Source: Clostridia bacterium (GTDB taxonomy: Bacteria > Bacillota > Clostridia > TANB77 > CAG-508). From it: a stretch of 64,000 bases of DNA. This document shows, piece by piece, positions 33,676-56,331 of this stretch. Numbering within the stretch: position 1 is the stretch's first letter; every line of letters starts with the position of its first letter. Both the position numbers and the translations under genes were made by a program. The DNA is taken from assembly GCA_900753245.1 (NCBI GenBank), contig CAADYJ010000080.1, forward strand, positions 3,228-67,227. The letters are read 5' to 3'. The notes under the pieces were generated by a model. It worked only from the letters and a program-made list of their open reading frames with translations, was not told the DNA's origin and did no database searches.

Positions 33676-36600
33676 CTATTTTTTTAGTATTTTTCTTCTA
33701 ATAAATACTATTCCTCCAGCTAATAAACCAATTGCTATAATTGTTGTAATTGTAATTATAATGTATAATCCTGCATTACCAAATGGTGGTAATATTTTTA
33801 CTATTTCTGCTCTGTCTGAATCTATTTCTTGTGGTTCCATTGTTGGATCTTGATTTCCTACTACAGAATATTCGTTTCTTCTTCCTACATTGTTGCTTGT
33901 TTTTACTATTTCTACAATATTCTTGTATGTTAAATCATCTGTTTTGTTCTCTGCAGTTATTAATTGTGTTAATACTAAATTTGTACTTGCACTTGATTTT
34001 TTATTATCATAAAGATCTGGCACTAACTCTGTTTTAGCTATTGTAGCATTTTCTTTGGTTGTAATTATTGTATTATATCGTTCTACTTTTGATTTCAAAT
34101 TCTTATTTACTAAATCTTGAGTTTTATCTTGAGTTATTAACTTATCTTGAGTTATTACTTCCCAATCTGTATTTTCAGCTAAACTACTATCAAATTGTAA
34201 GTTATTTGCTACATAGTCTATTATTTGATTTGCAGTTGTTTTTACTATTGTGTTTTTATCGGCTACTGTTCCTGTGTAATAGAATTGATTATCTTTATAG
34301 TCTACTTCACCAACATTTGTTACTGTTATTTGGTAAGTAATTTGTATTTTTGCGCCATGCATTAATTCTTCATCCATGCTTAATTGAATTAATCCTAATC
34401 TAGAATCTTTTGTATTTTTTGCTCTAATGTTTGCTATACTTCCAAATTTATTTTCATCTAACATATTATTTTTATATCCTGTGTCATATTTTTTGTGATC
34501 TTTCCATAATATATTACTTGCTGTTTGTTTTGCATCAAATAGTGTAGATCCATCTGCTAATGTAAGTTTTACATTTGTTACTTCTTTATTTATTTCAAGT
34601 TGTGCTTTTGGTCTTTCTTCTAATCCTAAATCCACATTTTGAACTTTATATATTGAAGTATCTTGTACTGCATCTTTAGTATCTGTTTGTGTTCTATCAT
34701 ATTCGAATTCTATAACCATCATACCTGTTTCTGCTGTCATTTTAGTATTGTCAATTAAATCTTTTATTAAGTCTTCTCTTGAATTCATTGTATTATAATC
34801 AGCTTTATGAGCTGCTAATACTTCTGCTTTATAGTTTGTAACATTTTTTTCTGAATATTCTATTACTTTGTTTCTACGAGATTCTATATCTTTTGCATCT
34901 GATGCGTTTTGATTTTTGCTTAAAGATATACTATCCGCAGTAGTTATATCATACAAATATCCTTTTTGTTCATTATCGTTAAGTTGTTTCTTTATTGCTG
35001 TTTCATTATTTGTACAATTATCTGTATTATAAGCATGTATTTTTGTTATTATTTCTCCTTTTTGTTCTTGTCCATTTACCCATGTAGAGTTTCTTCTCCA
35101 TTCATATGTTTTGTTTTGAGGTATATCTTTTTGATATGTTGTAGATTTATAGTCTTGTCCATTGTAAGATTTGCTATTTAAGCCTCCTAATTCGCTTGGA
35201 TATACAGTTCTTACTGTATCACCATATATAAATCTTACTACATATTTACCAGGCATAAATGATTTAAATGCATATTTTCCTTTATGTTCATTTCCTAAAT
35301 CTATATTTCCTACAATGTTAGATAAACCTATAATTGGTGTTTCAGATTGTACAGTTCCTGAACCAGTTCCTTTTCCTATTGCATTTGTTCCAAAGTTACC
35401 TATTTGATTTGTTCCAAATTCTCTCCATACAAATTCTTTTCCATCATCTAATAATTCTACTAATTGTACAGTTACACCATCTATTAATGTTTCTGAGTTT
35501 TCTCTTAAACCATTTCCTATTGCTACTTTTTCTCCACTTACTTTTCTTTCATCTTCCCATACAGTTCCAGATATTACTCTATTATGATCATCATTGCGAT
35601 CTATTTTTAATTTAATATTTGGTGCTTTATCTGTATCGTCTTCAAAGTTTTTATAATTAGGTGTTCCATCTTTTGGTACATCTGTTGGATTTAAGTTACC
35701 TGGATTTGAATCTCTATCTACAATACCTGCTGGTTGTCCTGATACATCTCCTTCTACGTTTGGTATTGTTGTTCCTTCTTTATATTTAGTAGTATATCCA
35801 TTTATTTCTGCAATATTTTCTTTACCTACTCCAATTACATTTCCTGTTGCTAAATCTTCATCTAGTATAATCCAATCTTCATTGTTTTCAGTCTTTTTGT
35901 TTACTTCGAATGTTAAGTAAATATATGCTGTTTTTCCTGAAGTTAAATATAAACCTTCTGCTTCACTTCTTACATTATTTCCATTATTATCTATTTCTTG
36001 AGAGTTTTTGCCTAAACCAGTAATATATAAATTTTTATAATGGTTTATATCTGTTCTTGTTCCAGCTTGTTTATATATGCTTGCATTATTACCATTTACT
36101 AAGTATTTTTTATTGCTAACTTGAATATATGAACGTTCTGGTACATAAGTTAAATCTTCATCATAGTAATCTACTATTTCGTCTGCTCTACATAGTATGC
36201 TTTGTGATTGGTTTCTTACTCCTATTTTGTATGTAATATATACTTTTAATTCGTCATCTTTACTCTTTCCAAGTTCATTATAATTTCCGTACATACTTAC
36301 TTTGTATGCATAATCAGATGCATATAATTCTCTAGTATATTCTGTATTGTAATAACGTTTTTCTGAATCTATAAGTCCTATATCAGATAACCTTAAATCA
36401 ATATCCCATACATTTTGTACATTTTCACTTCCACAGTTTGGACATGTATTTACACCATAATCTTCTGAAAAGTTTAATTCATCATTTGTTCCTGTTCTTC
36501 CACAATTATTGCATTTAAATTTATCTAATTTATTGTATGTGTATTCATGTGTTTGACCATTTGTCTCTAGTGTTACTTTATATACATCTTTATTTAAAGC

Positions 36601-39600
36601 TAAATCTGAAGTTCTTCTTAATGTATATCCTTGATTAATGTATAAGTTAGCATCATTTTTGTATAAGTAATGTATTTTTTTTTCTATTACATTACTTCCA
36701 TTTATTTTTAACCCCTTCAATAGATTTAAATTGTATGTTGTCGTTCTCTTCTCTTGTTTATTTTTATCTTCTATTAATTCTTCATCTCCTGTAGCTATAA
36801 TAAAATTTGAATATATTGGATATAAATCGTTCTTACGCACTGTTTTATTGTTTTGTGTTACATCTTTTCCTGTATAAGAATTTAACATACAATCTTTTAC
36901 ATATTGTATCATTTCATTAATTTCAGTAGTATTACTATTTGATTTTTCTTTTATTAAGTTTCCAAATTCATCTATAACAGCTTCTTTTGTTTTTACATAT
37001 TCACCATTTTCGTTAAGAGTATAACCTTGTAATTGTTTTTTAGTAAATGTTTTATTTGTTCTATTGTTTTCTTCTGTTACAGTATAGTTTGCAGGTGATG
37101 AACCTATTGATGCAAATCTTGCATTTATTGCTTTTCTTTCTTCTTGTACATCTGTACCATTAGAATTTATATTCCAGGTTCCTTCTTTATTTTCTTCATA
37201 CTTAACCCATCCGTCGCCTTTATCAGATGGACTTACATATTCTACTGGTTCATAATATTGTGAATTATATGTAAATTCTACAAAATATTGATACATAGAA
37301 TTTATTCCTGTGAATAAATACCTACCATTAGAATCTGTTTTAGTTGGATTTTGTATTTGTTCTTTTTTTCCTTTTTTGTCTGTACCTTCATATGATGTTA
37401 ACTCAGCTTTTATTTTATTTCCATTTTTATCATATCTATATAAAGTTACAATTACGTTTGGCATAGGTTTATCAGTTTGATTATTTATTGCTTTTGATTT
37501 ATCGTATACATTATCATTTTCTGTCATCTTTCCGCCTTTTGTGTCTTCCCAAACTTGTCCGCCAAGTTCCATTGTTAAATCTAAATCATATGGTGTTATA
37601 GTTACTGTATACTTTTTCCATGTTCTTTTTCTACTTGTTAACATTGCTAATTTTTGTGCATTGTATTTTATTTTTGTATCTTCTTCCCAAGTTTGAAATC
37701 TGTATTTATAATAATAATACGTCCTTATTGTTATTTCAGTATCTCCTTCACCATCATTATCAGTATCTACCCATTTTTTATCACATCCACTTTCTGTTCC
37801 AGTATTTTCCCATTTCAATCTTCCTCTTATCTGAAGAATTCTTCCTTTTCCAGTATATGTTGTATATTTAGCTTCTGTAGTTTGTAAATATGCGAAGTTC
37901 ATTTTTACTTCTACTGATGTAGGATAATTAGCTTCTTCCGCATTAAATTTTACCCAAAATTTTTCACCACTTGTTGGATATTCATTTCCATTAAGTGTTA
38001 TAATTTGTATTTTATCTAATCCTAATTTTGTAACATTATTATTTACTGCTGAATTTTTAGTTTCTATCCATATATCTTCTATATATGAAAATTTAAGATT
38101 ATCTGGATACTGTACTGAAAAAGGTCCTGCTATATATGTCTTTTTATCTCTTTCAACTACTATCTTAGAATCCGAACTAAATGGTACTACATGATCTTCA
38201 TAATTTTTTAAATATGTATTGTAATAATCTTGATATTTATCAGCTTCTTCTTTTAAGGATGTTGCATTACTATTACTATCTGAGGTATCGTAAGCATCCC
38301 CTTCATTAAATCCAGGTTTATCCTTCCATAAAGCGTCTTGTATTACTTGTTCATCTGCTATATCACTAAATGTTGATGTATAATTTCCCTTTTTAAATTT
38401 TATTTTATCACTAGTAGGGCTAAATTCTGGTCCTGAACTTAATATATATGCTTCTTTATTATTTTTAGGTGTTGAGCTTCCCGCTTCTGACCATGTAGGT
38501 GTTTCGCAATATACGTTTCCATAATATTCATTCTCTCTAAAATCATCTATAATTGTTGGAGTTGTAAAACTAAATCCTTTATAATATTGAAATAACTGTG
38601 TTGATACATTAGTTGATGCTTTATAATAGTCTCCTCCATCTAATAGCTTTTTCGCTTCAGCTTTTGCTGAGGCTTTTCCTGCATATGTATAATAATTTAT
38701 TATTCTTTCATCTATATTTCCTGTAACATATTGATCAATTCGGTTAATAACTGGTGTAAATCTTATACTTCCATGTTTTTGTTTGCATAATAATAAACTT
38801 AGAGTATCTTTTATTGTTTTATTATTTTCTCCTCCAGATATGCTATAATTATGACTACCATTATTATAAATTGTAGGTAAGAATTCTAATTTATTTGTAT
38901 TAGCATCTGTATGTTTCCAATCATAATGTGCTGTTTTATCCCAAGAACCTGGATTTTTTGTTATTTCTGTTGTGTTAGCTGAAGCATTAAAATGTTTTTT
39001 ATTTATATCTTCTATTTCTTCAAGCGAAGCTCTCACTTTACTTACAAGTACTCTTTTTATTCCTCCACATGTATATTCAGTTACATTTCCTACTTTTACA
39101 GTTGCTGTACATTTATATTCTTTATATGTGCATTTATATGTTCTATCATTTATATCTTCAAATACTGTTACTGTTCCAAGATATTGTAATGGTCCAACAT
39201 GATTATCTGGGTCAAGTCCATAATTATATTTTTTTCCATTATAAGTATATTCTGCATTACTATATATTAAACTTGAATCTTGCACTTCTTTTTGATAATC
39301 TTGCTCATCATTTTTATACGTTTCACAACAAGGATACCATTTATGCCAAATTGCATAATTATTACATGTTGCTTTCTTTTTTCTATGCTCTATAGGCGCT
39401 TCTTCATGTTCATCTGGATTATAAACTAATTCCGTATGACTTGGATGTTTTGAACATTTATATTCTATAGCTGTTATACATGTTGGATCAGGATCGTTGG
39501 CATTGCATTTTTCTAGATAAGGTTTATGATTTTTTGAATTTATTTTTGTATCATAATCTTTTCCACATGATTTACAATGATTTTTTCCTTTAGTAACACA

Positions 39601-39972
39601 ATCCCCTTTAGAAACTGGTGTTTGGTCTCCTACATGATTATTAGGATCTATATCTCCTACATCGTAATCTTTATTACATGATGTACAATGCATTTTTTTC
39701 TTTGATATACAATTAGCTGCTGATTGTGTTTTTTGTGTTCCTGTATGGTTATCTGCATTCTTACTACCTTTTCTATATTCTTGTTTGCACTGTTTACAAT
39801 ACCATACTTCTCTACTTGTACAAGTAGCATCTGCTCTCTTTTCTTGTTTTGTATCGTCATTATGTGTACATTTAGTTGCTCCAATTGATTGAGTAGAATA
39901 TATTACTGTTAAACCTGCAAAAGCTAAGAATAACGCTATTAATATAGTTATTATTTTCATTCGTTTTTCCAC
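33676..39972 (-). CDS. giant secreted cell-surface protein B1 (2098 aa): signal peptide, Cys-rich repeats, Cna-B/SdrD-B-like and DUF11-like domains, C-terminal sorting-signal-like tail (ILPPFGN + TM + RRKILKK). Probable GTG start
   Basis: Cna-B-like units, for example QVWEDTKGGKMTENDNVYD...NVIVTLYRYDKNGNKI...TDSNGRYLFTGI and ISGTVWEDERK...GVTVQLVELLDDGKEF. C-terminal ...IQITYQITVTNVGEVDY.... Paralogous to B2 over the C-terminal ~900 aa. GGAAGGTG RBS lies 7 nt before the GTG, which is 19 nt after the A1 stop. Confidence 0.75.
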   Translation of the reverse strand: MEKRMKIITILIALFLAFAGLTVIYSTQSIGATKCTHNDDTKQEKRADATCTSREVWYCKQCKQEYRKGSKNADNHTGTQKTQSAANCISKKKMHCTSCNKDYDVGDIDPNNHVGDQTPVSKGDCVTKGKNHCKSCGKDYDTKINSKNHKPYLEKCNANDPDPTCITAIEYKCSKHPSHTELVYNPDEHEEAPIEHRKKKATCNNYAIWHKWYPCCETYKNDEQDYQKEVQDSSLIYSNAEYTYNGKKYNYGLDPDNHVGPLQYLGTVTVFEDINDRTYKCTYKEYKCTATVKVGNVTEYTCGGIKRVLVSKVRASLEEIEDINKKHFNASANTTEITKNPGSWDKTAHYDWKHTDANTNKLEFLPTIYNNGSHNYSISGGENNKTIKDTLSLLLCKQKHGSIRFTPVINRIDQYVTGNIDERIINYYTYAGKASAKAEAKKLLDGGDYYKASTNVSTQLFQYYKGFSFTTPTIIDDFRENEYYGNVYCETPTWSEAGSSTPKNNKEAYILSSGPEFSPTSDKIKFKKGNYTSTFSDIADEQVIQDALWKDKPGFNEGDAYDTSDSNSNATSLKEEADKYQDYYNTYLKNYEDHVVPFSSDSKIVVERDKKTYIAGPFSVQYPDNLKFSYIEDIWIETKNSAVNNNVTKLGLDKIQIITLNGNEYPTSGEKFWVKFNAEEANYPTSVEVKMNFAYLQTTEAKYTTYTGKGRILQIRGRLKWENTGTESGCDKKWVDTDNDGEGDTEITIRTYYYYKYRFQTWEEDTKIKYNAQKLAMLTSRKRTWKKYTVTITPYDLDLTMELGGQVWEDTKGGKMTENDNVYDKSKAINNQTDKPMPNVIVTLYRYDKNGNKIKAELTSYEGTDKKGKKEQIQNPTKTDSNGRYLFTGINSMYQYFVEFTYNSQYYEPVEYVSPSDKGDGWVKYEENKEGTWNINSNGTDVQEERKAINARFASIGSSPANYTVTEENNRTNKTFTKKQLQGYTLNENGEYVKTKEAVIDEFGNLIKEKSNSNTTEINEMIQYVKDCMLNSYTGKDVTQNNKTVRKNDLYPIYSNFIIATGDEELIEDKNKQEKRTTTYNLNLLKGLKINGSNVIEKKIHYLYKNDANLYINQGYTLRRTSDLALNKDVYKVTLETNGQTHEYTYNKLDKFKCNNCGRTGTNDELNFSEDYGVNTCPNCGSENVQNVWDIDLRLSDIGLIDSEKRYYNTEYTRELYASDYAYKVSMYGNYNELGKSKDDELKVYITYKIGVRNQSQSILCRADEIVDYYDEDLTYVPERSYIQVSNKKYLVNGNNASIYKQAGTRTDINHYKNLYITGLGKNSQEIDNNGNNVRSEAEGLYLTSGKTAYIYLTFEVNKKTENNEDWIILDEDLATGNVIGVGKENIAEINGYTTKYKEGTTIPNVEGDVSGQPAGIVDRDSNPGNLNPTDVPKDGTPNYKNFEDDTDKAPNIKLKIDRNDDHNRVISGTVWEDERKVSGEKVAIGNGLRENSETLIDGVTVQLVELLDDGKEFVWREFGTNQIGNFGTNAIGKGTGSGTVQSETPIIGLSNIVGNIDLGNEHKGKYAFKSFMPGKYVVRFIYGDTVRTVYPSELGGLNSKSYNGQDYKSTTYQKDIPQNKTYEWRRNSTWVNGQEQKGEIITKIHAYNTDNCTNNETAIKKQLNDNEQKGYLYDITTADSISLSKNQNASDAKDIESRRNKVIEYSEKNVTNYKAEVLAAHKADYNTMNSREDLIKDLIDNTKMTAETGMMVIEFEYDRTQTDTKDAVQDTSIYKVQNVDLGLEERPKAQLEINKEVTNVKLTLADGSTLFDAKQTASNILWKDHKKYDTGYKNNMLDENKFGSIANIRAKNTKDSRLGLIQLSMDEELMHGAKIQITYQITVTNVGEVDYKDNQFYYTGTVADKNTIVKTTANQIIDYVANNLQFDSSLAENTDWEVITQDKLITQDKTQDLVNKNLKSKVERYNTIITTKENATIAKTELVPDLYDNKKSSASTNLVLTQLITAENKTDDLTYKNIVEIVKTSNNVGRRNEYSVVGNQDPTMEPQEIDSDRAEIVKILPPFGNAGLYIIITITTIIAIGLLAGGIVFIRRKILKK

Positions 39973-39990
39973 TTTATTTCACCTTCCTTT

Positions 39991-42900
39991 CTATCCTAAT
40001 ATTTTTCTCTTTATTACATAAGCACTTGCTGTTATAGCACTTATTATTCCTAAACTTAATACTATAAATAATATTGTCTCACCAGTTTTTACTGTTAAAA
40101 GTACATCTGCTGAAGACATATCATCTTCTCCAGATACTTTATTTGCTGGTGTTGAGTCTACATCTTGTAAGCCTAAGTCATTATATGCTTCTTGTATTTC
40201 TGCTGTATTATTAATTAACCCTACATTTTCTTGTGTTAGCTTTTTAGTTAATAATAATGTTATTTCTTTTGTTTCTCCTGGATTAATTAAAGTATTTGCT
40301 AAACTTGAACTATAAATTGCTCCATTTTCTCCTTGATACCAATCTTTATTTAGTTCTGAATTGAATTTTAGTTCTGCTGGAATGTAGTCTGCTATTTTTT
40401 TAGCATATCCAGATACAGCACCTTCGTTAGTTACTTTAATTTTATATTCTATTACAATTGTTGTAGAATTAATTTGTTTTCCTACTAAATCACGTTTTGC
40501 AAGTTTTGTATCTTTATAATCATATGTTTTTGTTCCTGTAGAATCTTGAACTGTTATTTTTGATACTGCTTTGTCTAGTTTTAAGTCAAATTTAGGATTT
40601 ACTACTAACCCTAAGTCTATATTATAGATATTTGAATTTGTTACTTCTATTTCTTCTGTTATTGCTGCTGTTCTTTTTTCTTCTCCTAATATTATTTGTG
40701 TATCTATAGCATCTGAATTTAATGTTGAATCTACTCCTTGCTTTCTATAAGTAGTGCTACTGTAATTTGCTGTATCGTATAAGAATATTACTGTATATTT
40801 TCCTTTTGGTACTTCTGTAAATGTGTATTTTCCATCTTCTGATGTTGAAATTTTTTCTTTTTCTAAGTTTCCTGTTACATTGTTTAATAACATAACTTCA
40901 ACATTTTGCATTTTCTTTTCTTGTTCATCTTTTTGTCCATCTTTATTTTCATCTAGCCATACTTGTCCACTTATTCTTTTGTTTTCTGACACATTAGGAT
41001 TATCATTGTCTGTAATTTCTGTAGCCTTTAAAGTATGTGAAATAGAATTTATTTCTATTTCTTTTTTATCTATTGTTGCTGTTATTTTATTTGTTATTTT
41101 TGTATCTTCTTCAACATACCCTACTCTAGCATATATCTTTATTTCTTGCTTTTCACCATCCTTTAATGCTAATATAATTTTTAGTTCATTGTCTTCTGTT
41201 AAAACTATTCCTTTTATTTCTTCTTCTTTTAAATCTTTCATTATTGTAGCTTTTTCAAATACTAATTCTTTTGGAAATTTATCTATAAGTTTTATTCCCT
41301 TACTTTCTCCTGTTTTACTTCCTTTAGATTCTATTATAATTTTATATTCAAATTCTTCTGTTCCACTTATATTTTCTCCTTCTGGTATAGTACAAGATTG
41401 AGTTATACTTAAAGAATTTTTTATAATTGTTATTACTTTTTCGTCTGTATTTTCTTTTTCTACATTATCTGCATATACAGTAGTTTTTATTTTTAAATCT
41501 TTAGAATATACTTCTTCTTTTGTTTCTTTTACTTTTAAATTTATTTTTAAAGTTTGAGAGTCTTGAATTTTTAGTTCTAATCCTGTAATTTTCAAAATTT
41601 CTGTTTTTTCATCATATGTTATTTTCGATTTATCTATTTCTTGTTTTCCATATGTTGCTTTTATAAATTCTAATTCTGTAGGTATATTAATTTCTATTAT
41701 AGTATTTTTAGTTTCATAATATCCATATATGTTTAACTCATAATTAACATTCGTTCCTTCTTCTACATTTTTTATATTGTTTTCTTCATTATCTACTGAT
41801 ATTTCTTGTTCTAAAGAAAAAACCTTATTTCTTACATAGTTAGTTATTTTATCTGTTTCTATTTTGGCTTCTAATCCTTCATATTCTATTGTAGCTTGTG
41901 TCGAGATCTCTTCTTTTTCATTAATATCTCCATCTATTCTTTCTATATAAAATTTAAATATTTTTTCTATTGTTTCTCCTTGTTTTAATGTTGATATTGT
42001 ACATATTCCATCTTTAATATTTTCATCATCTCCTGAATATATTGCATTTTCAGGAGTTGGAACTGTTATTTTTAAATTATTAGCTGCTAAATCTCCAGAG
42101 TTTGTTACTTTAACTGTATATTCAATTTCATCGTCTGATAATATTGTTGCTCCATTTTCTACATTTGCACTTATACTTGCTTCTATTTTTGGTCCTTGTC
42201 CTGTTGTTGCACCAACTTTTGCTGTTTCTTGTCTATCTTCTACTGTTCCTTCTTCTAAATTATTTGAATAATATACTGCATATGTTTCAAATGAAGATTG
42301 GTTATGTTCTAGTCCTTCTTCTACATTTGCATTATAATTAAATGTTATTGCCTCTCCTGTTGGCATAACATAATCGTTTGTTACTATTAAATAAGATTTA
42401 ACTTTACTTAAATCTGTTGGTTCTGCTACCCATCCATTTGATTGTACATTTAAGTCTTTTGTTGCTTCTCCATTTTCTGAGTAATAAACTTGTACTTTAT
42501 TTGAATCTATTCCTTCTACACTTATTCCTGTTGTTAAGTCTAAATCCATTGTTGAGTTTAAATCTTTGTTGCTTAATATTTCTTTGTTTCCTGCAAATGG
42601 TGTTCTTCCTAAGATTGAAACATTTTCTATATCGTTTTTATAGTTATTCATTACACTCATTTTAAATGTTGCTTCTTTTTGGCTTGATAGTATTGGTAAT
42701 TCTGCAACTTTTTCTTCACCTGTAATTGATGTTAATTCTTCTGCTCCATCTTTATAGTTACTAATTCCATTCATTGTAACTATTCCAACTGGTGCTGAAA
42801 AACTTATTTTATTTGTTACTTCATTTATTTCTGAGTTTTCATCATTTTCGTTTGTTACTACCATTGATATTTCTGAATCTATATTTGGTGTTAGTTTGTT

Positions 42901-45395: not shown

Positions 45396-45566
45396 ACTTT
45401 TATTAGATTGCATAAAATGCAATTGTTTATTTTCTAATAATTTATTCAATTTTTTAGTTCTTTTTTTAATCAATTTTTTATTATTATGGTAAGTAAAAAT
45501 AACAAGGAAAGGAGGTTTATTTGTTTTATGCAATTTAAAATAATTTTGTAGAAAGGATATTTTATT

Positions 45567-46568: not shown

Positions 46569-46589
46569 ATAAAATGTATTAATTTAATA

Positions 46590-46628
46590 ATAAAAAACCA
46601 ATTAAGATTTTTTCTTAATTGGTTTTTT
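46590..46628. terminator. Bidirectional terminator between the Rpn gene and B2
   Basis: AAAAAACCAATTAAGA-TTTTT-TCTTAATTGGTTTTTT. The 12-bp stem is flanked by A-runs and T-runs. Confidence 0.65.
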
Positions 46629-46633
46629 ATTAC

Positions 46634-49600: not shown

Positions 49601-51313
49601 ATATTTTAATATAGTATATGCTTTATTGTATGTTCCCACTTCGTAATATAATTTTCTTCTTACTTTGTAGTTTTCTGGATATGAACCTATTTGCTCGTAG
49701 TCTAAATTATATTGTTCTCTTTGTGTTTTTATTTCTGTTGCATTTGAATATCCGCCTGATAAGTTATCTTCGTAATATGTTGGTTGATACATTTGTCCAT
49801 TATATATAAATTCTATATAATATTTGTATTTAGAATCTACTTTATCAAATTCATAATGTCCGTTTTTATCTGTTACTGTTCTTGCTACTTCTTTGTTTTT
49901 AGATGCTTCATATAGTACAACCTCTACTCCAGGTAACATTTTTTCTGTTTCATCTTTTTTACCATTTAATTTTGTCTCTTTTGTTTGTTTATCATCTTCC
50001 CATACATTTCCTGCTAATTTAATTGTTAGATTTTTCTCTCCTGGTATTTTTATATCAAGTGATGTACTTTCTAAGTGCCTTTTTCCATCTGGTTCTAATT
50101 GATCTTGATATGCAACTATTTCTTCTTGGAATTTAGTTGATACCTTGTCACTATAGCAACATCCTGAACAGTATGTTATTCCGCCTTTTCCATCTGAATG
50201 ACCATCACAATGTGCTGTATGTGAATGTGAGAATACTGCAACATATTTATGTGATTCAAAATAGTATAATTTTGCTTCTGCTTTCATCCACTTAAAGTCT
50301 ACATGTATATTTTTTATATGTATATCTTTGGGAGCTTTTATTTTTATATAAAATTGTTGTCCTGATGCTGGGTAATTTTGTGCTCCAGTATCTACTAAGT
50401 TTTTGTCATCTACTGGTGTAAAATATCTTGGTTTTATTTCTTTTTTAAAGTTTCCTTCAGAGTCTTTTACTATAAATGATTCTATTTCTATACGATCTGT
50501 TTTTTCTCCTACTACATACATATCTGATATTCCACCAAATACTATTCCATAATTTCCATTTATATAAGTCATAGAAAATGGTCCTACTAGGTATTCTTGT
50601 TTTGTATAGTCTCCTAATACTCTAACATTTTCTTCTTTTGTTGTATTTTGTGGATTCATTGTTCCATTATTTTTATCTAGTTTTCTTGCAAATTGTTCAT
50701 AATATGCTGCTTGTAATGCTAATTGTGATGCTGTAATTCCATTTCCTGTTACTTTTGGTGCTTTTTTGTTTTTATTCAATGTTGGTGTTTCCCATATTGC
50801 TTCTTGTTTTATTGCAGACCAACTATTCCAGTCTGGATCAGGATAAGTTACTATAAAAGCTTCTGTATATGTTGCTGCTTTTTGTTCTTTTAAGAAGTAA
50901 TATGGTCTAGAATAGATTTTTCCTTTTCCTGCATCTGGTGTTGTTACTTCTCCATGTGCTGATTCTTTTCCATTCCAAGTAGTTACCAAATCTTTTATAT
51001 CTTCTTTTGTCTTTCCTTTTCCACTTAAGTGTGCACCTTTAGCTGCACAATATAACTGTCTTTGATCTACTAATACTCTCCAATAACTTGAATCTCCACT
51101 TTGTATTTTTTGAAGGTTGTCTGTATTTACTTCAAAGCTTCCTCCAATGTTTCCACTAGATCCATAGTCTGCAAGTGTTGGTGCTTGTTTAACTTTTTGC
51201 AATGCTACTGTTTGTGAAATAACATTAGGGGATTTTTTTAGTAAAATATATCCTAATACTAATGTTAATAATATTATTATTGCTATACTAGTATTTTTTA
51301 TTATTTTCTTCAT
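46634..51313 (-). CDS. giant secreted cell-surface protein B2 (1559 aa), paralogue of B1. C-terminal ILPPFGE + TM + KKKFLKK
   Basis: Signal/TM MKKIIKNTSIAIIILLTLVLG. Cna-B-like LPGVEVVLYEASKNKEVARTVTDKNGHYEFDKVD. The C-terminal ~900 aa are collinear with B1 (GLEERPKAQL..., LSMDEELMHGA.IQITY..TVTNVGE.DY.DNQFYYTG...). AGGAGGGG RBS lies 5 nt after the A2 stop. Confidence 0.75.
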   Translation of the reverse strand: MKKIIKNTSIAIIILLTLVLGYILLKKSPNVISQTVALQKVKQAPTLADYGSSGNIGGSFEVNTDNLQKIQSGDSSYWRVLVDQRQLYCAAKGAHLSGKGKTKEDIKDLVTTWNGKESAHGEVTTPDAGKGKIYSRPYYFLKEQKAATYTEAFIVTYPDPDWNSWSAIKQEAIWETPTLNKNKKAPKVTGNGITASQLALQAAYYEQFARKLDKNNGTMNPQNTTKEENVRVLGDYTKQEYLVGPFSMTYINGNYGIVFGGISDMYVVGEKTDRIEIESFIVKDSEGNFKKEIKPRYFTPVDDKNLVDTGAQNYPASGQQFYIKIKAPKDIHIKNIHVDFKWMKAEAKLYYFESHKYVAVFSHSHTAHCDGHSDGKGGITYCSGCCYSDKVSTKFQEEIVAYQDQLEPDGKRHLESTSLDIKIPGEKNLTIKLAGNVWEDDKQTKETKLNGKKDETEKMLPGVEVVLYEASKNKEVARTVTDKNGHYEFDKVDSKYKYYIEFIYNGQMYQPTYYEDNLSGGYSNATEIKTQREQYNLDYEQIGSYPENYKVRRKLYYEVGTYNKAYTILKYSNASGNTYTSDINEKSESGIKEIYEYVIDQASETKSYEKAYKNALEKFGNTEETKRKLQFIEDNRISSFTGNDTQRKVYPIYDKYTIGYKSRTIMGVEYKALYPEHLQIDFGLARREVADVALMKEIEKATIEIKGRQETYYYNQRAKEEQVTQEGDNTIWDIGVRLSDAAYYNTQYSREIYKSDYLYKVEDYSEQNSLNTNQIAQKYGETEQRELEVYVTYKIRVRNQSQSIRTKIEEIVDYYDKEYEYVNDRSYIEIGSGANKVKYENVKASEQSKYSANTRTSLESEGYNNLYITGLDEIYLSSGQTANIYLTFKVRKDPSRFIYLDEQDVGKQNIAEINGYSTKYKEGTEIPNVGLTDNNKVAGLFDRDSVPGNIESPVDVNKFEDDTDKAINLRVILEKDNRTIEGTAWEDNRTEYEKAQATATGNGKKEKGEEGIDGVRVQLVELMDNGSQYVWKEFLTGQGTYEPIINSNNIVQTVTDNTKGKYVFTSFVPGNYIVRFIYGDNDETVLTNTQTDVTNTLGAKGKNSRSYNGQDYKSTTYEPGISQEGQYYLKYLNKDIYGYKDYANQNETGTYLYNITALDGKDVSVAKDIASRRQETIKNSSNNITNEMAELLASYRNVPEGTTKETLRQQIEKFKQLTAMTAETGNINVEVEKDKIELGNQQGNNDIQYNVANVNLGLEERPKAQLAINKKVDNVKVVLADGSVLFDAKQTATNVLWKKNETYEPVYAKGILTQIRNSNAKKSGLVQLSMDEELMHGATIQITYKLTVTNVGETDYNDNQFYYTGIVSDKKKVATTTANQVIDYVANNLQFDNTKNSNWKVISKEEITNQKLVNARLQDKVNTFNTIITTTENSAINKTPLVPVIYSQTNGGNSSAEETLYLTQSITPENESSDLTYKNIVEIVKTSNTVGRINSYSIVGNQDPTSESAEVDSDKAEVVKILPPFGEMKNIIIITSTIFAAVGILVIGIIVIKKKFLKK

Positions 51314-51318
51314 TATAT

Positions 51319-54300
51319 TTATCCCCTCCTTCTTGGGTATGTTATTTTTTTCATTTTGTTATAAGATACATATCCTATTGCTATTATTGCTATACAAATT
51401 AGTGCTGAAATAAATCCTACTATTCCTACTATTTCACCTGTTTTTATTGATATAACAAGGTCTGCTGATGACATATCATCTTCATTTGAAACTTTATTTG
51501 CTTCTGTAGAATCTATATCTTTTATTCCTTCTTTATTATATGTTTCATATATTTCTGCATTGTTATTTACTATTCCAGTTCCATCTTCAGCTATTTTCTT
51601 TGTTAATGTTAATGTAACTTCTTTAGATTCTCCTGGTTGTAATTCTACATTTGCTAAGCTTGCATTATATAAATCTTTGTTGCTAGATTGATACCAGTCT
51701 TTATTTAACTCTGCACTGAATTTCATATCTTGTGGTATATAGTCTACTATTTTCTTTACGTAGTTTGCTACATCGCCTTCATTTTTTACAATTATTTTAT
51801 ATTCAACTATTACTGTTGCTTTAGATAATTGTTTTCCTGGTACTTCTACTTTTGCTATTTTTGCATTGTTATATTCATTTACTTTTGTTGTGTCTCCATA
51901 TGTTAATGTTACTTTGCTTATATATTTTTCCAAGCTTAAATCTGATTTTGGTGTTACATACATACCAACGTCTATATTTCTTGCATTACTATCTTTTATT
52001 TGAATAGTATCTGATACAGCTACTATTTTATTTGTTCCATCTATGTTCATTTCCATAGAAATTGCATCTGAATTTACAATTTTACTTACATCTTCTTTTT
52101 GATATTGTGTCAAAATATATTTTGAATTGTCATATTCAAATACTACAACGTATTTTCCTTCTGGTATGTTTTCAAATGTATATTTTCCAGAGTCTGATGT
52201 AGTTGTTATATCCTTTACTAATTCATTATTTTCTTGGTTGTATAGTCTTACTTTTAGTCCTTTAATAGTTTCTTCGTCTTCATCTCTTTGTCCATTTTTA
52301 TTAGAATCTATCCATGCTGTCCCTGATATTTTATATCTTCCTTCTACATTATTGTTATCGTTATTATCTTTATTATCGTCTTCTTGATCTTCTCCATTGC
52401 TGTTATCTTGTGCATTTTTGTTGTATTCTATAATGCTTGTTATTTTGTTAGATTCTATTTTTTTAAATAAATCTCCATATATAACTGCATAGTTTTGAAT
52501 TTGTTTTTCTTTTTCTCCTGAAGTAATTTTGTTTGCTACCACTGTTAATTTTATTGTTAGCTCTTCACTTTTTCCAAAGCTTGTTCTTGTTATTTGTAGT
52601 TTATTTGAATCTATACTTGTAATTTTTTCTGTTCCTGTAGCTGTAATTATTTCTGCATTTTCAAATGTTGTTCCTTCTGGTATTTCATTTTCAAATATGA
52701 AACTGTCTGTATATACATCACTATTATTTTTTATTTTGTATGTATATGTTATTTCTTGTCCTTCTTTAAAGTATTCTTGATCTAGCTTTTGTTGTTCTAT
52801 ACTAAAGTTTAATGTTTGAACTTTATTTGAAACTATATTTGATGTATGTTCTTCAACATTTTGTGCTTTTGCTGTAACTACTGGATTTATTGTTTCTTGT
52901 GCACTTTCTACTTGTGTTTCTACTATAAAGTCTATAGAATCTTCGTTATTATATTGATCTACCTTAAATGTAACTGTATTTCCATTTGTTTGAATATCTA
53001 CTTTTTTATCTTGTGAAGATATTACTCTGTTTTTTGTTGATGTATTTGTTATTTTTAGTCCTTCAGGAACTTTTACTGTTATTTCTAATTGTTTTAAATC
53101 TTCTCCTGATGATATTTCCTCTATTCTTGTAGTGTAAGTTAATTTGCTTCCTTTTGTTAATGTGTAATCTGAAGCTTTATCGCTAGTTACCATTACTTGC
53201 ATTGTTCCTTGTGCTAATTTTAAACTATATTCATTTGAGCTAATTGCTTTTGTCATCTTATTTGCCATTACACTTGCTGATGTTTTCATTGTTAGCTCTG
53301 GTTCTACTAGTTTTCCATTTTGCATTGGTAATGATTTTTTATCAATGTTTACTTCATCTATTTTTAACTCATATTCTACTTGTTTTTCTTCTCCAGCTTT
53401 TAAGCTTCCTATTTGAATTATTTTACTTGTTTCATCTTGATCTTCATATTCAGAAATATAATCATCTTCTACAAATTGTGTATGTTTCGTTTTATATGTA
53501 GCAACCAATTTTCCTTCTCTTCCATCTAAGTTCTCTGTAAAGTTTATTTTTCCATTTTCTTCGTAATAATAAATATTTGCACTTGGTGCTGTTATATTTA
53601 ATGTTACATTTTCTGCATCCATACTACCTGTATTTTTTACAGTTGCTCTAAATTTTACATATTGTCCTTTTCTTACTACTGAATTTTCACTTGTATATGA
53701 TGTTACATATGTTTCTAGTTTTGGTGCTTCTCCTGTTGTTAAAGAAGCTCCTAATGCTACTACTTTATCATTTATAGTTTGACTTTCTTGTACGTTATCA
53801 AAATATACTGTGTATACTGAATTTACTTTTTCATTATAATTTAAGCCTTCTGGTATTTGCATTTCATAGCTAAATTTTATGCTATCTCCAGTGTTCATTT
53901 CGTAATTTTGTAATACTATTAAATAAGATTTTACATTACTTAAATTTGTTGGTTCTGCCATCCATCCATTTGATGGTAAATTTAAGTCTTTTGTTGCTTC
54001 TCCATTTTCTGAATAATATACTGTGTATTGACCTTCTGACATTTGACTTGATGTTATTTTATTTAGCATTACTGCATCAAATGTATTTTCTAAGTTTTCG
54101 TTTGATTCTGTTTTTGTTGTTTTAGTTGTTAAAGTTCTTCCTAATATGCTTATATTATTTATTTTATTTGTATAATTGTTAATTAATTGAATTTCTGACG
54201 TTGCTGTTCTTGCTGGTGCACTTACTTCAATAATTCCTTGTTCTTGGCTTCCTGCTATAGAACGAATTTGTTTGTCTTGTGCATAATTAGAAATTGTATT

Positions 54301-56331
54301 AATTGGTACTAACCCTGTTGGAGCTATATATTTTATTTCTATTTCTTTTGCTTCTTGAGCTTCATTATTGTTTGTATATTTTATTTGTACTTTGTCTGTT
54401 TTTGTTGGAGTTAGATTATTTATAGATATATTAGCTCTTATAACAATTGTTGCTCCTTCTGCTACTTCATTTATTGCATATTTTGTTTGAGTTCCCTTTA
54501 GTGTTACTCTTATAGTTTTATTTTCTGCATTTATTACTTGTACATTTTCTATTTTTAATTCATCTTCATATAATAGTTCTGTTCCTAGTATTTGTACATT
54601 TTCCATTTCTTTTGGTAATGTTATATCTATTGTTGGGTCTTTATATAAACTATCGTATTCTGAATTTGTTTTTAATGTAGCTTTTATTTCTACTTCTTGA
54701 CTTTCTAATACTGTAGAAAATTGTGTATTACTCATTTCTATTTTCATTTTTGACGTTGGTTCTACAGTTTCTATAGTTGTATCTTGATTATCTTTTATTA
54801 TTTCTGTGTTATTTTTATTTACTTGTATATTTGATGTTTCTTCTAATTTTTCTATTTTCTCTATTTGAGTTTTTGTAATATTTTCTTCTTTTATTGTTTT
54901 TTCTGCTATTATTTCTAGCATTCCTTCTTTTTGAGGTTTACTTGTTTTTATTGTAATTTCATTTATGTTGCTTGATTGTATATCTACTACAATATTTTCT
55001 TCTTCATTGCTTGTTATCCTTGCTATTTCTTTGTTGTTTGATAATACACTTATATAACCTTCTTTTCCTAAAATATCGTTAAAGTTTTGTGTATTTACTT
55101 TTAATTGTTTAAAGTATGAACCTGTTCCTATTTGTTCTTTTTGAATATTCCATTTAGCTTGGCTTGCTGTTAGTACTATTTCGTCTGCTACTTTGCTATA
55201 TGCTATATCTATATCATATTTTACTTCGTATGGTATTTCTAAGTTTGTATATAAATATCCTTTACTTATATTTTCTTTAGATATACTTTGTTTTTCTTCT
55301 ATAATGTTTCCTATTTTTTCACTTAGTTTATTTTCTTGACTATATGTTTCATTTAGTATTTTTATTTCTCCACCATATGTTTTTACATTTGCTGATATGT
55401 TTGAGTTAAAATCTATTTCTTTTTGTTCTTCTATGTTTTCATAGCGATATGTAATTATATATTCTTCTTGTGAATCCCATTCTACTTTTCCATCGCTGTC
55501 TGGTATATTACTTTGTTTTATTATTAATTTTCCATTATTTGAATTATAATTCCAATTATCTTGTGATAATATTTGTAATTCATTTTGTTTTCTTACATTT
55601 ATTTGAGGTGTTTTGTTTTCTATTTTTGGTACTTGTATTTCTATGTTTGATTCAGCTATTGGTAATGCATTATTTTGTATTCCTACTGTTAATTTTTGTT
55701 CTATTATTATTCCTTTTTCATTTTCAATTTCATATGAGTTATATTTTTGTATATTTTGATTTATTTCAACTTTTGGATTTGCAACCCATGTTACCATATT
55801 GTTTATTGTTTTTTCTATTTTGTGTTCTTTTCCTTCGTCATCCATATATGTTGCTTTTAATGTAATATCATTTTGTTTACTAAATTCATTAATATTAACT
55901 TTTTTATTTGCATCAAAATAAATAGGTAATGCTATTGTATATTTCTCTGTATTACCATTAATTTGATTTAATTGTATTTTATTATTTTCTATTTTTTGAA
56001 TTTGCTCTTGTTGAACATCTTCACCTATTTTAAAATTAGCATTTGCTTCAACACTTGCATTTTTTAAATATCCTGTATTTTTTACTTTAATATCTAAATA
56101 AAGAGTATCTTGTTTTGTAATTTCTTGTGTAAGTGTATGAGTTTTATTTTCTTTGCTTATAAAATATGCATCAAATTCAACATTTTCATTGTTTGTTACA
56201 ATGCTTTGTTTTTCTAAGTTTGAATTATCTGCATATGATATTCCTGCTCCTTTTACTATTATTGTTAAGTTTGTCATTACTATAATAGTTATTAATAAAC
56301 TTGCTATTATTTTTTTCTTTATTGTATACAT
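51319..56331 (-). CDS. giant secreted cell-surface protein A2 (1670 aa), paralogue of A1. C-terminal LVISIKTGE + TM + basic tail
   Basis: Signal peptide MYTIKKKIIASLLITIIVMTNLTIIVKGA. DUF11-like FRATVKNTGSMDAENVTLNITAP. Cna-B ISGTAWIDSNKNGQRDEDEETIKGLKVRLYN...SGKYTFENIPEGKYVV. AGGAGG RBS. Confidence 0.75.
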   Translation of the reverse strand: MYTIKKKIIASLLITIIVMTNLTIIVKGAGISYADNSNLEKQSIVTNNENVEFDAYFISKENKTHTLTQEITKQDTLYLDIKVKNTGYLKNASVEANANFKIGEDVQQEQIQKIENNKIQLNQINGNTEKYTIALPIYFDANKKVNINEFSKQNDITLKATYMDDEGKEHKIEKTINNMVTWVANPKVEINQNIQKYNSYEIENEKGIIIEQKLTVGIQNNALPIAESNIEIQVPKIENKTPQINVRKQNELQILSQDNWNYNSNNGKLIIKQSNIPDSDGKVEWDSQEEYIITYRYENIEEQKEIDFNSNISANVKTYGGEIKILNETYSQENKLSEKIGNIIEEKQSISKENISKGYLYTNLEIPYEVKYDIDIAYSKVADEIVLTASQAKWNIQKEQIGTGSYFKQLKVNTQNFNDILGKEGYISVLSNNKEIARITSNEEENIVVDIQSSNINEITIKTSKPQKEGMLEIIAEKTIKEENITKTQIEKIEKLEETSNIQVNKNNTEIIKDNQDTTIETVEPTSKMKIEMSNTQFSTVLESQEVEIKATLKTNSEYDSLYKDPTIDITLPKEMENVQILGTELLYEDELKIENVQVINAENKTIRVTLKGTQTKYAINEVAEGATIVIRANISINNLTPTKTDKVQIKYTNNNEAQEAKEIEIKYIAPTGLVPINTISNYAQDKQIRSIAGSQEQGIIEVSAPARTATSEIQLINNYTNKINNISILGRTLTTKTTKTESNENLENTFDAVMLNKITSSQMSEGQYTVYYSENGEATKDLNLPSNGWMAEPTNLSNVKSYLIVLQNYEMNTGDSIKFSYEMQIPEGLNYNEKVNSVYTVYFDNVQESQTINDKVVALGASLTTGEAPKLETYVTSYTSENSVVRKGQYVKFRATVKNTGSMDAENVTLNITAPSANIYYYEENGKINFTENLDGREGKLVATYKTKHTQFVEDDYISEYEDQDETSKIIQIGSLKAGEEKQVEYELKIDEVNIDKKSLPMQNGKLVEPELTMKTSASVMANKMTKAISSNEYSLKLAQGTMQVMVTSDKASDYTLTKGSKLTYTTRIEEISSGEDLKQLEITVKVPEGLKITNTSTKNRVISSQDKKVDIQTNGNTVTFKVDQYNNEDSIDFIVETQVESAQETINPVVTAKAQNVEEHTSNIVSNKVQTLNFSIEQQKLDQEYFKEGQEITYTYKIKNNSDVYTDSFIFENEIPEGTTFENAEIITATGTEKITSIDSNKLQITRTSFGKSEELTIKLTVVANKITSGEKEKQIQNYAVIYGDLFKKIESNKITSIIEYNKNAQDNSNGEDQEDDNKDNNDNNNVEGRYKISGTAWIDSNKNGQRDEDEETIKGLKVRLYNQENNELVKDITTTSDSGKYTFENIPEGKYVVVFEYDNSKYILTQYQKEDVSKIVNSDAISMEMNIDGTNKIVAVSDTIQIKDSNARNIDVGMYVTPKSDLSLEKYISKVTLTYGDTTKVNEYNNAKIAKVEVPGKQLSKATVIVEYKIIVKNEGDVANYVKKIVDYIPQDMKFSAELNKDWYQSSNKDLYNASLANVELQPGESKEVTLTLTKKIAEDGTGIVNNNAEIYETYNKEGIKDIDSTEANKVSNEDDMSSADLVISIKTGEIVGIVGFISALICIAIIAIGYVSYNKMKKITYPRRRG

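Follow-up and report, generated by a model that had tools for sequence, protein, structure and literature searches.

What do four giant secreted proteins, encoded as two neighbouring gene pairs in a low-GC clostridial chromosome, contribute to the cell that carries them? In this work we analysed a stretch of 64 kb (hereafter the window) that contains these genes, and compared the locus with its relatives in other genomes. The explanation that we favour, with somewhat better than even confidence, is that a bicistronic surface-protein cassette, X-Y, is present at the locus in two diverged copies and pairs a stalk protein (X) with a TIE-type adhesin (Y); X and Y correspond to the A and B proteins of an initial annotation of this DNA. 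The cassette adds a new branch to a kind of Gram-positive surface protein already known, and is neither a pilus nor an inserted island. Its most informative feature, missed by annotation models and overlooked in the initial annotation, is the head of the Y protein.

Organization of the locus

The initial annotation had described four giant ORFs of 1559-2098 aa filling about 35% of the window, and we recovered all four on the minus strand at exactly the coordinates it gave (Table 1), where they occupy 20.9 kb, or 33% of the window. Its reading of two co-oriented two-gene operons with short spacers and strong ribosome-binding sites was likewise correct: each X gene is followed by its Y gene after 5 nt or 18 nt, with AGGAGG-type ribosome-binding sites. 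So was its reading of the protein termini, as all four proteins begin with a hydrophobic signal sequence and end in a short motif, a hydrophobic helix and a basic tail. A candidate sigma-70-like promoter lies 37 nt upstream of the X1 start, and a perfect hairpin between the converging ends of Y1 and the next gene is likely to act as a bidirectional terminator. The region between the operons is not free of genes, since that next gene lies there; it encodes a 333-aa Rpn-family (PDDEXK_2) protein with a GIEQ repeat at its C-terminus and separates cassettes X1-Y1 and X2-Y2, and strain L008 has such a gene too. Adhesin operons of C. difficile have a c-di-GMP riboswitch in front; an Rfam search of all 64 kb at the gathering threshold returned no match to any family, a c-di-GMP riboswitch before the adhesin operons described here included.

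Table 1. Coordinates of the genes, predicted domains and motifs of the X-Y locus within the window.
Feature	Position	Strand	Description
X1	51319..56331	-	1670 aa; Ig-like chain and SdrD_B
X1 C-terminal anchoring signal	51322..51450	-	S-I-K-T-G-E (aa 1628-1633), hydrophobic helix, basic tail; KMKKITYPRRRG
Y1	46634..51313	-	1559 aa; thioester-like head and SdrD_B stalk
Y1 head	50006..51235	-	aa 27-436; predicted class II thioester domain
Y1 Cys89 in LYCAAKG	51035..51055	-	[YFL]C-Phi-zeta motif
Y1 KQEAIW	50792..50809	-	aa 169-174; TQxxPhiW-type motif
Y1 YQDQL	50090..50110	-	aa 402-406; holds candidate bond-forming Gln
Y1 sorting-type motif	46736..46753	-	I-L-P-P-F-G (aa 1521-1526), then TM helix and basic tail KKKFLKK
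X2	39991..44934	-	1647 aa; X1-type architecture
Y2	33676..39972	-	2098 aa; Y1-like with Cys-rich N-terminal extension
Y2 N-terminal Cys-rich module	38968..39876	-	aa ~33-335; 4 or 5 repeats C-x7-9-C-x2-C ... N-H
Y2 thioester-like head	37573..38955	-	aa ~340-800
Y2 Cys396 in LLCKQKHG	38770..38793	-	[YFL]C-Phi-zeta motif
Y2 IQDALW	38326..38343	-	aa 544-549; TQxxPhiW-type motif
Y2 AQKLAML	37639..37659	-	aa 772-778; candidate Gln motif AQKLA at aa 772-776
Y2 sorting-type motif	33778..33795	-	ILPPFG, then TM helix and RRKILKK
Candidate sigma-70-like promoter	56368..56396	-	TTGAAA-17-TATAAT; 11/12 matches, consensus match alone
Perfect 20-bp hairpin	46588..46632	.	between Y1 stop and Rpn gene stop
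Rpn-family gene	45567..46568	+	PD-(D/E)XK nuclease / putative transposase; PF12784, E=5.5e-43
s136	56514..56849	+	small conserved gene, divergent from X1; ORF called from 56439, homologues start MRGDN
s104	56846..57160	+	small conserved gene; 4-nt overlap with s136 stop

The X proteins as stalks of nearly constant length

X1 is composed of a signal peptide, about 13 Ig-like beta-sandwich domains of the CLIPPER/DUF11 type, a calcium-loop SdrD_B domain (aa 1335-1430) and a terminal CnaA-like domain, and ends in SIKTGE, a TM helix and a basic tail, with its sole Cys inside the TM segment. X2, with SdrD_B at aa 1323-1413, ends in TVKTGE, a TM helix and KRKILG. The domain search that the initial annotation proposed as a check found SdrD_B and DUF11, supporting its view of giant secreted surface proteins built from Ig-like adhesin or stalk domains. 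Its attribution of Cna-B/SdrD-B, DUF11 and SpaA/RrgB repeats to all four proteins stands in part. SdrD_B passes the Pfam cutoff of 29.7 bits in X1 (58.2), X2 (57.3) and Y1 (52.9), and DUF11 is found in X (Pfam, 40.7 bits in X2 against a cutoff of 24.6; NCBIfam TIGR01451, 36.5 in X1 and 29.7 in X2 against a cutoff of 24), DUF11/CLIPPER matches of either database being confined to the X proteins among the four. The part that fell is SdrD_B in Y2, which at 22.6 bits lies under the cutoff, together with the Cna_B, SpaA and pilin families, to which Pfam gave no match. Homology between X and Y amounts to a weak match (E about 1e-3) limited to their shared C-terminal SdrD_B/CnaA-like module.

DUF11, since renamed CLIPPER, has been shown by crystallography to be an isopeptide stalk domain, and isopeptide bonds were predicted for SdrD_B in the same survey (PMC12617251). 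In our alignment of X proteins (A2), D1530 and N1590 show no variation and K1469 almost none, and the order of the three fits an isopeptide triad, suggesting that these conserved columns may form Lys-Asp-Asn isopeptide triads. X length is about 1,680 aa, with a standard deviation of 58 aa over sequence identities of 28-44%. In these respects X would be a stalk or spacer of nearly fixed length, essentially free of Cys, made of an Ig-like CnaA/CLIPPER-type chain and a calcium-loop SdrD_B domain. It differs from the CLIPPER (DUF11)/SdrD_B stalks of fibrillar adhesins (PMC12617251; S. aureus SdrD, 10ps/4jdz) in lacking both a recognisable ligand-binding head and tandem identical repeats, and in a length that is almost invariant across the clade. 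A 'periscope' adhesin, evolving by repeat expansion, was rejected because no high-identity intragenic tandem repeats were found.

The Y proteins and their predicted thioester head

Y1 consists of a signal sequence or anchor, a thioester-like head, two SdrD_B domains with large insertions and a terminal CnaA-like domain, while in Y2 a Cys-rich extension of some 300 aa, which matches no Pfam family, comes before the head. The fold predicted for the Y head is that of a thioester domain (TED), a beta-barrel with a helical bundle, including the beta-sandwich insert and return hairpin of class II; structural alignments with class II TED structures are at 10-11% identity. Motif conservation points in the same direction. 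In an alignment of 19 Y sequences (A1), the Cys of the thioester-domain motif [YFL]C-Phi-zeta, as defined in PMC6194298, is invariant and the preceding Tyr is at least 90% conserved; the TQxxPhiW-type motif keeps its Trp (W148) without exception and shows at least 90% conservation of its Gln (Q144), with the Thr replaced by Lys in Y1 and by Ile in Y2. Both motifs occur at the right spacing in 55 of 91 Y orthologues. The candidate bond-forming Gln, in a weak PhiQzetaPhiPhi motif, was recognised by eye in about 17 of the 19 aligned sequences, its column not being invariant.

Sequence models do not detect this head. None of the four proteins matched the TED family of Pfam or TQXA of NCBIfam, and neither phmmer nor a profile search of the PDB returned a match. 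An HMM of the head, run against 1.84 billion representative sequences, gave 254 matches, of which 25 distant ones were aligned (A4) and were all Y-like; TED was absent among the Pfam matches of these 25 (E<=0.1), and no sequence bridge to known TEDs was found in this set. We infer that the Y head is a highly divergent class II-like thioester domain in which a Cys-Gln bond would form. If the predicted fold is correct, the thioester-domain superfamily would reach into sequence space beyond the present Pfam and NCBIfam models, and because these models miss such heads, adhesins of this type are probably undercounted in metagenomes.

The nearest known systems are the class II TIE proteins, such as BaTIE of B. 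anthracis (6fwv), EfmTIE86 of E. faecium (6fwy) and SaTIE of S. aureus (6fx6) (PMC6194298, PMC4450167). Like them, Y is a secreted protein whose N-terminal head is predicted to adopt the TED fold, with the beta-sandwich and long twisted hairpin of class II; it likewise has the [YFL]C-Phi-zeta and (T/K)QxxPhiW motifs, a CnaB-type stalk and a C-terminal hydrophobic anchor. Unlike them, Y has a head that escapes all sequence models, is three to four times longer, carries a His/Cys cluster in the Y1 head (aa 363-386) and a Cys-rich module before the Y2 head, is anchored by LPP[F/Y]G in place of LPxTG, and is co-encoded with a partner, X.

These features suggest a mechanism in which the Sec pathway would export both X and Y, and their C-terminal motif, TM helix and basic tail would keep them at the cell surface. 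Y would be a TIE-type fibrillar adhesin whose SdrD_B/CnaA-like stalk presents the class II-like thioester head, and the Cys-Gln thioester could react with an amine of a ligand (in host mucus, on a host protein or on another cell), locking the bacterium on covalently as a "covalent harpoon". Both the nature of this ligand and a cooperation of X with Y are conjectural. The head is also the variable, strain-swapped part of Y, and the stalk is conserved: in strain L008 the head allele is about 30-40% identical to that of Y2, yet keeps the three motifs, and a different Cys-rich module takes the place of the N-terminal one of Y2.

Sorting signals and the absence of a linked sortase

The C-terminal pentapeptides are non-canonical, reading S/T-[IV]-K-T-G in X and L-P-P-F-G, without Thr, in Y. 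T1631 and G1632 of X1 are invariant among 20 diverse aligned X proteins, and the motif [STG][IVL][KVAR]TG recurs in 120 homologues and across loci; among Y family tails, close relatives share KILPP[FY]G and distant members have xPPTG. In an NCBIfam scan of the isolated tails (E<=10) the only similarities, to EF0750_LPXTG and Rumino_NPXTG, stayed below threshold, and no Firmicu-CTERM or exosortase-type signal emerged. Every sortase substrate known to us has Thr at the position where Y has an aromatic residue, and the change from Thr to Phe or Tyr, in a sorting signal that is intact in all other respects, poses a concrete puzzle to sortase biology. A Pro-Pro endopeptidase (PPEP) site in ILPPFG was also considered; PPEPs require Pro at P3', and the candidate was dropped because this residue is missing.

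Genes for a sortase, signal peptidase or chaperone, which the initial annotation had found wanting, are indeed absent from the 64-kb window by Pfam searches of every sizeable ORF, and neither tblastn with three sortases nor a six-frame signature scan detected a sortase there. Beyond the window this absence is not general, since four of 88 related loci (L006/L007 and L055/L059) have a sortase within 10 kb, none reaching the class C cutoff; at L055/L059 a neighbour protein ending in TPKTG adjoins a class-B-like sortase.

The known substrates of C. difficile SrtB, with (S/P)PXTG motifs, offer the closest parallel (PMC4155245). Like them, X and Y are clostridial proteins with a non-LPXTG pentapeptide, a TM helix and a basic tail; the xPPTG of distant Y proteins and the TPKTG at L055/L059 resemble (S/P)PXTG, and the NVQTG of C. 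difficile CbpA resembles the Pro-less [IV]KTG of X. Unlike them, the Y proteins of the window have Phe at the scissile Thr position, and the window has no sortase. In vitro, NVQTG was not cut by C. difficile SrtB (PMC4155245), so that X-type motifs likewise lack a demonstrated enzyme. The signals [IV]KTG and LPP[F/Y]G may be cut by an unlinked sortase or may belong to plain membrane anchoring. A further reading, which we consider distinctly unlikely, is that X-Y forms a clade-defining surface fibre of two proteins, independent of sortase, with LPP[F/Y]G as a new anchoring or processing signal and the Y thioester capturing X on the same or a neighbouring cell, instead of or besides a host ligand; if true, this covalent capture of X by Y would amount to a self-assembling fibre or cell-cell lock made without a pilus sortase.

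The two-component pilus proposed in the initial annotation, in which a pilus-specific sortase, encoded elsewhere in the genome, would use the C-terminal motifs of X and Y to polymerise them head-to-tail, is very improbable. A regex scan of all four proteins found no pilin motif (YPKN) or E-box, Pfam gave no match to GramPos_pilinD1/BB/D3, FctA, SpaA or Cna_B at E<=0.01, leaving generic fold similarity only, and the window contains no class C sortase. X and Y, moreover, each have their own membrane anchor and, at 1600-2100 aa, are far above the size of a shaft pilin. Sortase-dependent pili with a TED tip adhesin, such as Cpa-FctA-FctB of S. pyogenes (2xi9), differ in these motifs and in protein size, and also in having a SipA-type gene and a class C/B pilus sortase, which the X-Y locus lacks. 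A paper on a 'conserved pilin' of TANB77 describes a Tad/type IV pilus cluster and is unrelated to this locus.

Conservation and evolution of the cassette

The pairing proposed from the window proved stronger than could then be known: Y lies directly after X in 79 of 92 full-length cases (more than 80 loci), and each cassette diverges as a unit. The two cassettes are less alike than the 40-60% identity estimated by eye, X1 and X2 being 34% identical overall (48% only in the last 300 aa) and Y1 and Y2 38% over 1583 columns, 341 of them gapped. Judged by these identities, X1-Y1 and X2-Y2 are two ancient cassette lineages, because each is closer to cassettes of other species (41-49%) than to the other (34-38%). 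These relationships, and the Rpn-type nuclease gene between the pairs, contradict the simple old tandem duplication that had been suggested.

The view of the locus as an island also fails, because its GC content (0.25-0.29) equals that of its flanks and 55 of 80 species-level MAGs have it in this slot, flanked by minC and a spoIIE-like gene. What had been described as an interruption of a radC-mreBCD-pbp-minCDE block is an arrangement conserved in relatives, and neither minD nor minE lies in the window. We accordingly give hardly any credence to a horizontally acquired adhesin island or the mating adhesin of a conjugative element, for which the native composition and fixed chromosomal position, with the first cassette in the ancestral slot in dozens of species, would be unexpected; nor did Pfam and Rfam detect a T4SS, relaxase, integrase or tRNA gene in the window. 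Such an origin would draw on the internal Rpn/PD-(D/E)XK gene, the only gene of mobility type, on the position of X2-Y2 nearest to cassettes of other species, and on the precedent of TED adhesins serving conjugation on plasmids such as pLS20 (PMC8092201). A later gain is conceivable for the second cassette alone.

Carriers of the cassette form a large clade of uncultured gut Clostridia with small, low-GC genomes, in which it is a conserved part of the chromosome. The clade includes Clostridium sp. CAG:508, CAG:273 and Ca. Scatovivens, takes in the CAG-508 family, and appears to overlap the GTDB order TANB77, to which that family belongs. To our knowledge, almost nothing is known of the cell surface of this order. 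The order is uncultured, occurs widely in the guts of humans and animals, and has been linked to immunotherapy response (PMC11680825). As a conserved pair of giant proteins, one of them predicted to bind ligands covalently, X-Y would be a prime candidate for the means of attachment of these small-genome bacteria to mucus, host cells or partner microbes, and also a candidate strain-variable antigen.

Conservation of the slot bears in addition on a rather unlikely alternative, that X-Y is chiefly a structural part of the envelope or spore surface (an S-layer-like coat, spacer brush or spore appendage) tied to morphogenesis. Such a role would explain the fixed place beside mreBCD-pbp2-minC and spoIIE, genes whose proximity could point there, and would suit the two conserved small genes alongside, the nearly fixed length of X, as for a ruler or structural element, and the retention of the cassette even in small genomes, such as the 1.70-Mb chromosome of a related MAG. 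However, neighbourhood alone is weak evidence where genome backbones are conserved, and at about eight loci the cassette stands in another context. Pfam found no SLH, CWB2 or other wall-binding module in the four proteins, and a strain-swapped head of predicted TED fold is the pattern usual for ligand-binding or antigenic tips and not for lattice proteins.

The two small genes, s136 and s104, lie on the opposite strand beyond X1. The s136 product is acidic at its N-terminus and conserves a C-terminal motif, NDPRxNLLxSLKPYLKxSRxxKVDQYI, and its homologues are all unnamed or 'hypothetical' proteins without domains; that of s104 has an N-terminus rich in Pro and Tyr and a hydrophobic C-terminus. 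Homologues of one or both occur in 55 of 80 related loci and, wherever mapped, lie between minC and X.

A probable bicistronic surface module

The four giant surface-protein genes are probably organized as a conserved bicistronic surface module, in which X is a stalk or spacer and Y an adhesin of the TIE type (Gram-positive adhesins with a thioester domain, TED, as head) carrying a divergent thioester head. X would serve as an Ig-domain stalk or spacer of fixed length, Y would present its divergent predicted thioester head for covalent attachment, and both would be held by degenerate sorting-type signals. The X-Y pair is a variant of the known TIE/CLIPPER-type fibrillar adhesins. The initial annotation proved largely right in what it observed; its interpretation holds for the protein class and the pairing of the genes, and is wrong in taking the region for a pilus locus, for an island and for a simple duplication.

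The coordinates of the four very long minus-strand ORFs are as first described, and ORFs of this length cannot have arisen by chance in such AT-rich DNA (GC ~27% in the window). There is no compositional break across the region, and a mobile or conjugative origin of the first cassette is unlikely. The X1-Y1 spacer is 5 nt, with AGGAGGGG lying within the 3' end of X1, and X2 and Y2 are 18 nt apart, with GGAAGGTG in the spacer. A sigma-70-like hexamer pair, a good match, is found 37 nt upstream of X1. X1 and X2 are preceded by long 5' regions, yet Rfam at gathering thresholds gave no match (no tRNA, riboswitch or leader) over positions 1..64000. The lipoprotein gene beyond Y2 encodes a signal sequence and LVGC lipobox, and is flanked by a promoter-like site of its own (33605..33577) and a strong terminator (32853..32823); its product matched no family, and BLAST found a counterpart in no related locus.

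Features of the X-Y region and of selected related loci (L-numbered contigs)
Feature	Coordinates	Strand	Remarks
Rpn copy, truncated	7644..8309	minus	second copy, 37 kb away
Acidic low-complexity lipoprotein	32877..33500	minus	207 aa; directly after Y2
Y2	39972..33676	minus	2098 aa
Zinc-ribbon-like insert	36418..36522	minus	Y2 aa 1151-1185; CxxC...CxxC
Extracellular Cys-rich module	38968..39876	minus	Y2 aa ~33-335
X2	44934..39991	minus	1647 aa
Rpn-type PD-(D/E)XK nuclease / putative transposase	45567..46568	plus	333 aa; PF12784, E=5.5e-43
Perfect 20-bp hairpin	46588..46632		between Rpn gene stop and Y1 stop
Y1	51313..46634	minus	1559 aa
His/Cys cluster	50198..50227 and downstream	minus	Y1 aa 363-386; HSHTAHCDGH...YCSGCC
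X1	56331..51319	minus	1670 aa
s136	56514..56849	plus	divergent from X1; overlaps s104
s104	56846..57160	plus	divergent from X1; overlaps s136
minC	57213..57836	minus	directly after pbp2
Class-B-like sortase and TPKTG protein	L055 10205..12367; L059 18849..21032		3' of X-Y
Leucine-rich-repeat protein	L008 2818..4080		420 aa

Stalk domains

SdrD-B, DUF11 and Cna-B/SpaA pilin repeats had been proposed for all four proteins. The first two were recovered, SdrD_B (Pfam) exceeding its cutoff in X1, X2 and Y1 but not in Y2, where the match is sub-threshold, and DUF11 (Pfam, with NCBIfam TIGR01451 in agreement) being restricted to X; the pilin, SpaA and Cna_B families matched none of the four. DUF11, since renamed CLIPPER, was identified by crystallography as a CnaA-like isopeptide stalk domain of fibrillar adhesins, and the same survey predicts isopeptide bonds in SdrD_B (PMC12617251). 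The YPKN pilin motif, E-box and canonical LPxTG are likewise absent from X1, Y1, X2 and Y2. The suggested two-component pilus is therefore disfavoured, because every pilin-defining feature tested failed. The zinc-ribbon-like insert of Y2 (Pfam Zn_ribbon_8, E=0.0046, sub-cutoff) lies within a stalk domain of this secreted protein, and Y1 lacks it.

A thioester-like head in Y

Alignment of Y homologues revealed that the Cys of Q[IL]YCAxKG is invariant and that KQEA[IV]W, ~80 residues on, is conserved; the two are consistent with the motifs by which TEDs are defined, [YFL]C-Phi-zeta and TQxxPhiW (PMC6194298). A Gln near the end of the head, in a PhiQzetaPhiPhi context (YQDQL, YQKLM, FQRLL and similar), would fit the weak motif of the bond-forming Gln in TEDs (PMC6194298) and is a candidate for that residue. 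Modelling of Y1 aa 27-440 with AF2, based on a 19-sequence alignment, reached a pLDDT of 82; for this model Foldseek at E<=1e-3 returned only the two chains of the EfmTIE86 class II TED (E=1.7e-6, probability 0.99), with BaTIE next in the list. The modelled secondary structure agrees with that described for class II TEDs, showing an inserted sandwich and a very long, twisted hairpin in addition to the head.

Against TED membership, sequence models are blind to this head: Pfam TED and NCBIfam TQXA were missing both from the matches for X1, Y1, X2 and Y2 and from the families listed with 25 distant Y relatives, and PDB sequence and profile searches gave no match. A head HMM recovered only 254 representatives from 1.84 billion, and the 25 distant matches aligned were all Y-like. 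The label is therefore limited to predicted fold and motifs, by which we describe the Y head as a divergent class II-like TED. The His/Cys cluster of Y1, conserved in many orthologues, is located in the long hairpin of the head and could be a metal site or disulfide knot. Y2 has about 600 extra N-terminal residues relative to Y1 and 29 Cys versus 5; its Cys-rich module, comprising 4 or 5 repeats (C-x7-9-C-x2-C ... N-H) N-terminal to the thioester-like head, matched no family.

C-terminal signals and sortases

As previously noted, each of the four proteins closes with a short motif followed by a hydrophobic helix and a basic tail. X-family members carry [STG][IVL][KVAR]TG[EDKG] as this motif, with T and G invariant. 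Distant Y members carry xPPTG, xPNTG or similar, ordinary tails of the (S/P)PXTG type that marks the substrates of C. difficile SrtB (PMC4155245); closer relatives, Y1 and Y2 included, carry [LVMI]PP[FY]G. With PP[FY]G in 43/79 paired Y proteins and PPTG in 22/79, an aromatic residue thus occupies the scissile-Thr position in about half of the family. On the C-terminal tails, all matches to anchor HMMs stayed below threshold.

Searches of the whole window confirmed that it has no sortase, and one occurs within 10 kb in only 4 of 88 related loci. In two of these (L006/L007), X-Y is followed by a DUF6577 protein, a sortase and a third DUF11 protein (1512 aa, ending GVSTGS); this sortase is unclassified, scoring 43.5 bits against the general model (cutoff 39.35) and, at best among class-specific models, 59 bits versus 160 for class C. 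In the other two (L055/L059, from two related species), a class-B-like sortase with a TLSTC signature precedes a protein of 390-429 aa with a TPKTG end, and the Y motif is still VPPFG. An enzyme encoded elsewhere in the genome may cleave X and Y and join them to the wall, or both may be retained in the membrane by their anchors. A further reading, which appears unlikely, takes LPP[FY]G as a new kind of anchoring signal and has the predicted Y thioester capture X itself.

Distribution and genomic context

Clusters of Y-like proteins number only 64 among 5.8 billion proteins and those of X-like proteins more than 264; none of them bears a name. An X alignment scan of species-representative genomes gave at least 544 stretches; 80 loci were retrieved, all from uncultured gut Clostridia MAGs, including Clostridium sp. 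CAG:508, CAG:273, Ca. Scatovivens and one 1.70-Mb complete chromosome. Since CAG-508 is a family within the uncultured order TANB77 (PMC11680825), we infer that the cassette-bearing clade belongs to TANB77.

ORF and BLAST mapping gave a recurring order of mreBCD, pbp2, minC, the divergent s104 and s136, X, Y and a spoIIE-like gene, with minC upstream in 55/80 loci and the spoIIE-like gene downstream in 38/80. Nine loci have a tandem second cassette and about eight a different context, the remainder being cut by contig ends. Y comes directly after X, mostly with 15-20 nt between them, in 79 of the 92 full-length cases, which upholds the proposed pairing. The region had been viewed as an island interrupting a minCDE block; given the recurring gene order, and a minC with neither minD nor minE in the 64-kb window, it is instead a clade-wide core-like locus. 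The absence of minD and minE apparently extends to related loci.

X is almost constant in length (median 1676 aa, SD 58), whereas Y lengths span 1229-3186 aa. Because locus position and X length are fixed, a structural or sporulation-linked role for X-Y, though rather improbable, remains a real rival to the adhesin module. Homologues of s136 and/or s104 occur in 55/80 related loci, between minC and X where mapped, and Pfam and NCBIfam matched neither protein. About 409 clusters make up the s136 family, with no informative name and the few named ones 'hypothetical'; the motif NDPRxNLLxSLKPYLKxSRxxKVDQYI is conserved at the C-terminal end of s136. The s104 protein is rich in Pro and Tyr at its N-terminus and hydrophobic at its C-terminus. 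The two might assist or regulate X-Y, or be sporulation/division proteins unrelated to it.

Divergence of the cassettes

X1 and X2 share 34% identity over their full length, reaching 48% only in the last ~300 aa, and Y1 and Y2 share 38% in an alignment of 1583 columns, of which 341 are gaps. In the DNA, the similarity that persists between the copies is confined to patches of 71-88% identity, mostly in the cell-proximal thirds, and no intragenic tandem repeats of high identity were found. The nearest relatives of X1 and Y1 both lie in L001, L004 and L009-L014 (41-49% identity), and those of X2 and Y2 in L022 and L025 (43-47%). X and Y of each cassette are thus nearest to the same genomes, indicating that the cassette evolves as a unit. 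The two copies are ancient lineages and not the product of a simple in-situ duplication: either they go back to an old duplication followed by differential loss, or a whole cassette was gained later.

In another strain (L008), nucleotide identity is 98-99% across pbp2, minC, X1, Y1, the Rpn gene and X2. The Y2 of this strain matches that of the window exactly in the signal peptide and at roughly 95% identity in the stalk, but falls to only about 30-40% identity from aa ~23 to ~800, covering the Cys-rich module and TED-like head. The module at this position is a different one, and the head keeps the LLLCK(Q/H)KHGSIRFTP, LIQDALW and AQKLAMLT segments. Such a head swap, with putative catalytic residues preserved, is the pattern expected for a functional ligand-binding or antigenic tip. 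The leucine-rich-repeat gene of L008, an extra gene between minC and s104, is absent from the window (~57164..57211 compared).

The Rpn gene between the two cassettes, overlooked in the initial annotation, has a GIEQ x8 repeat at its C-terminal end. Repeated recombination-promoting nuclease genes of this kind could drive the gain or loss of cassettes, or swaps of the head.
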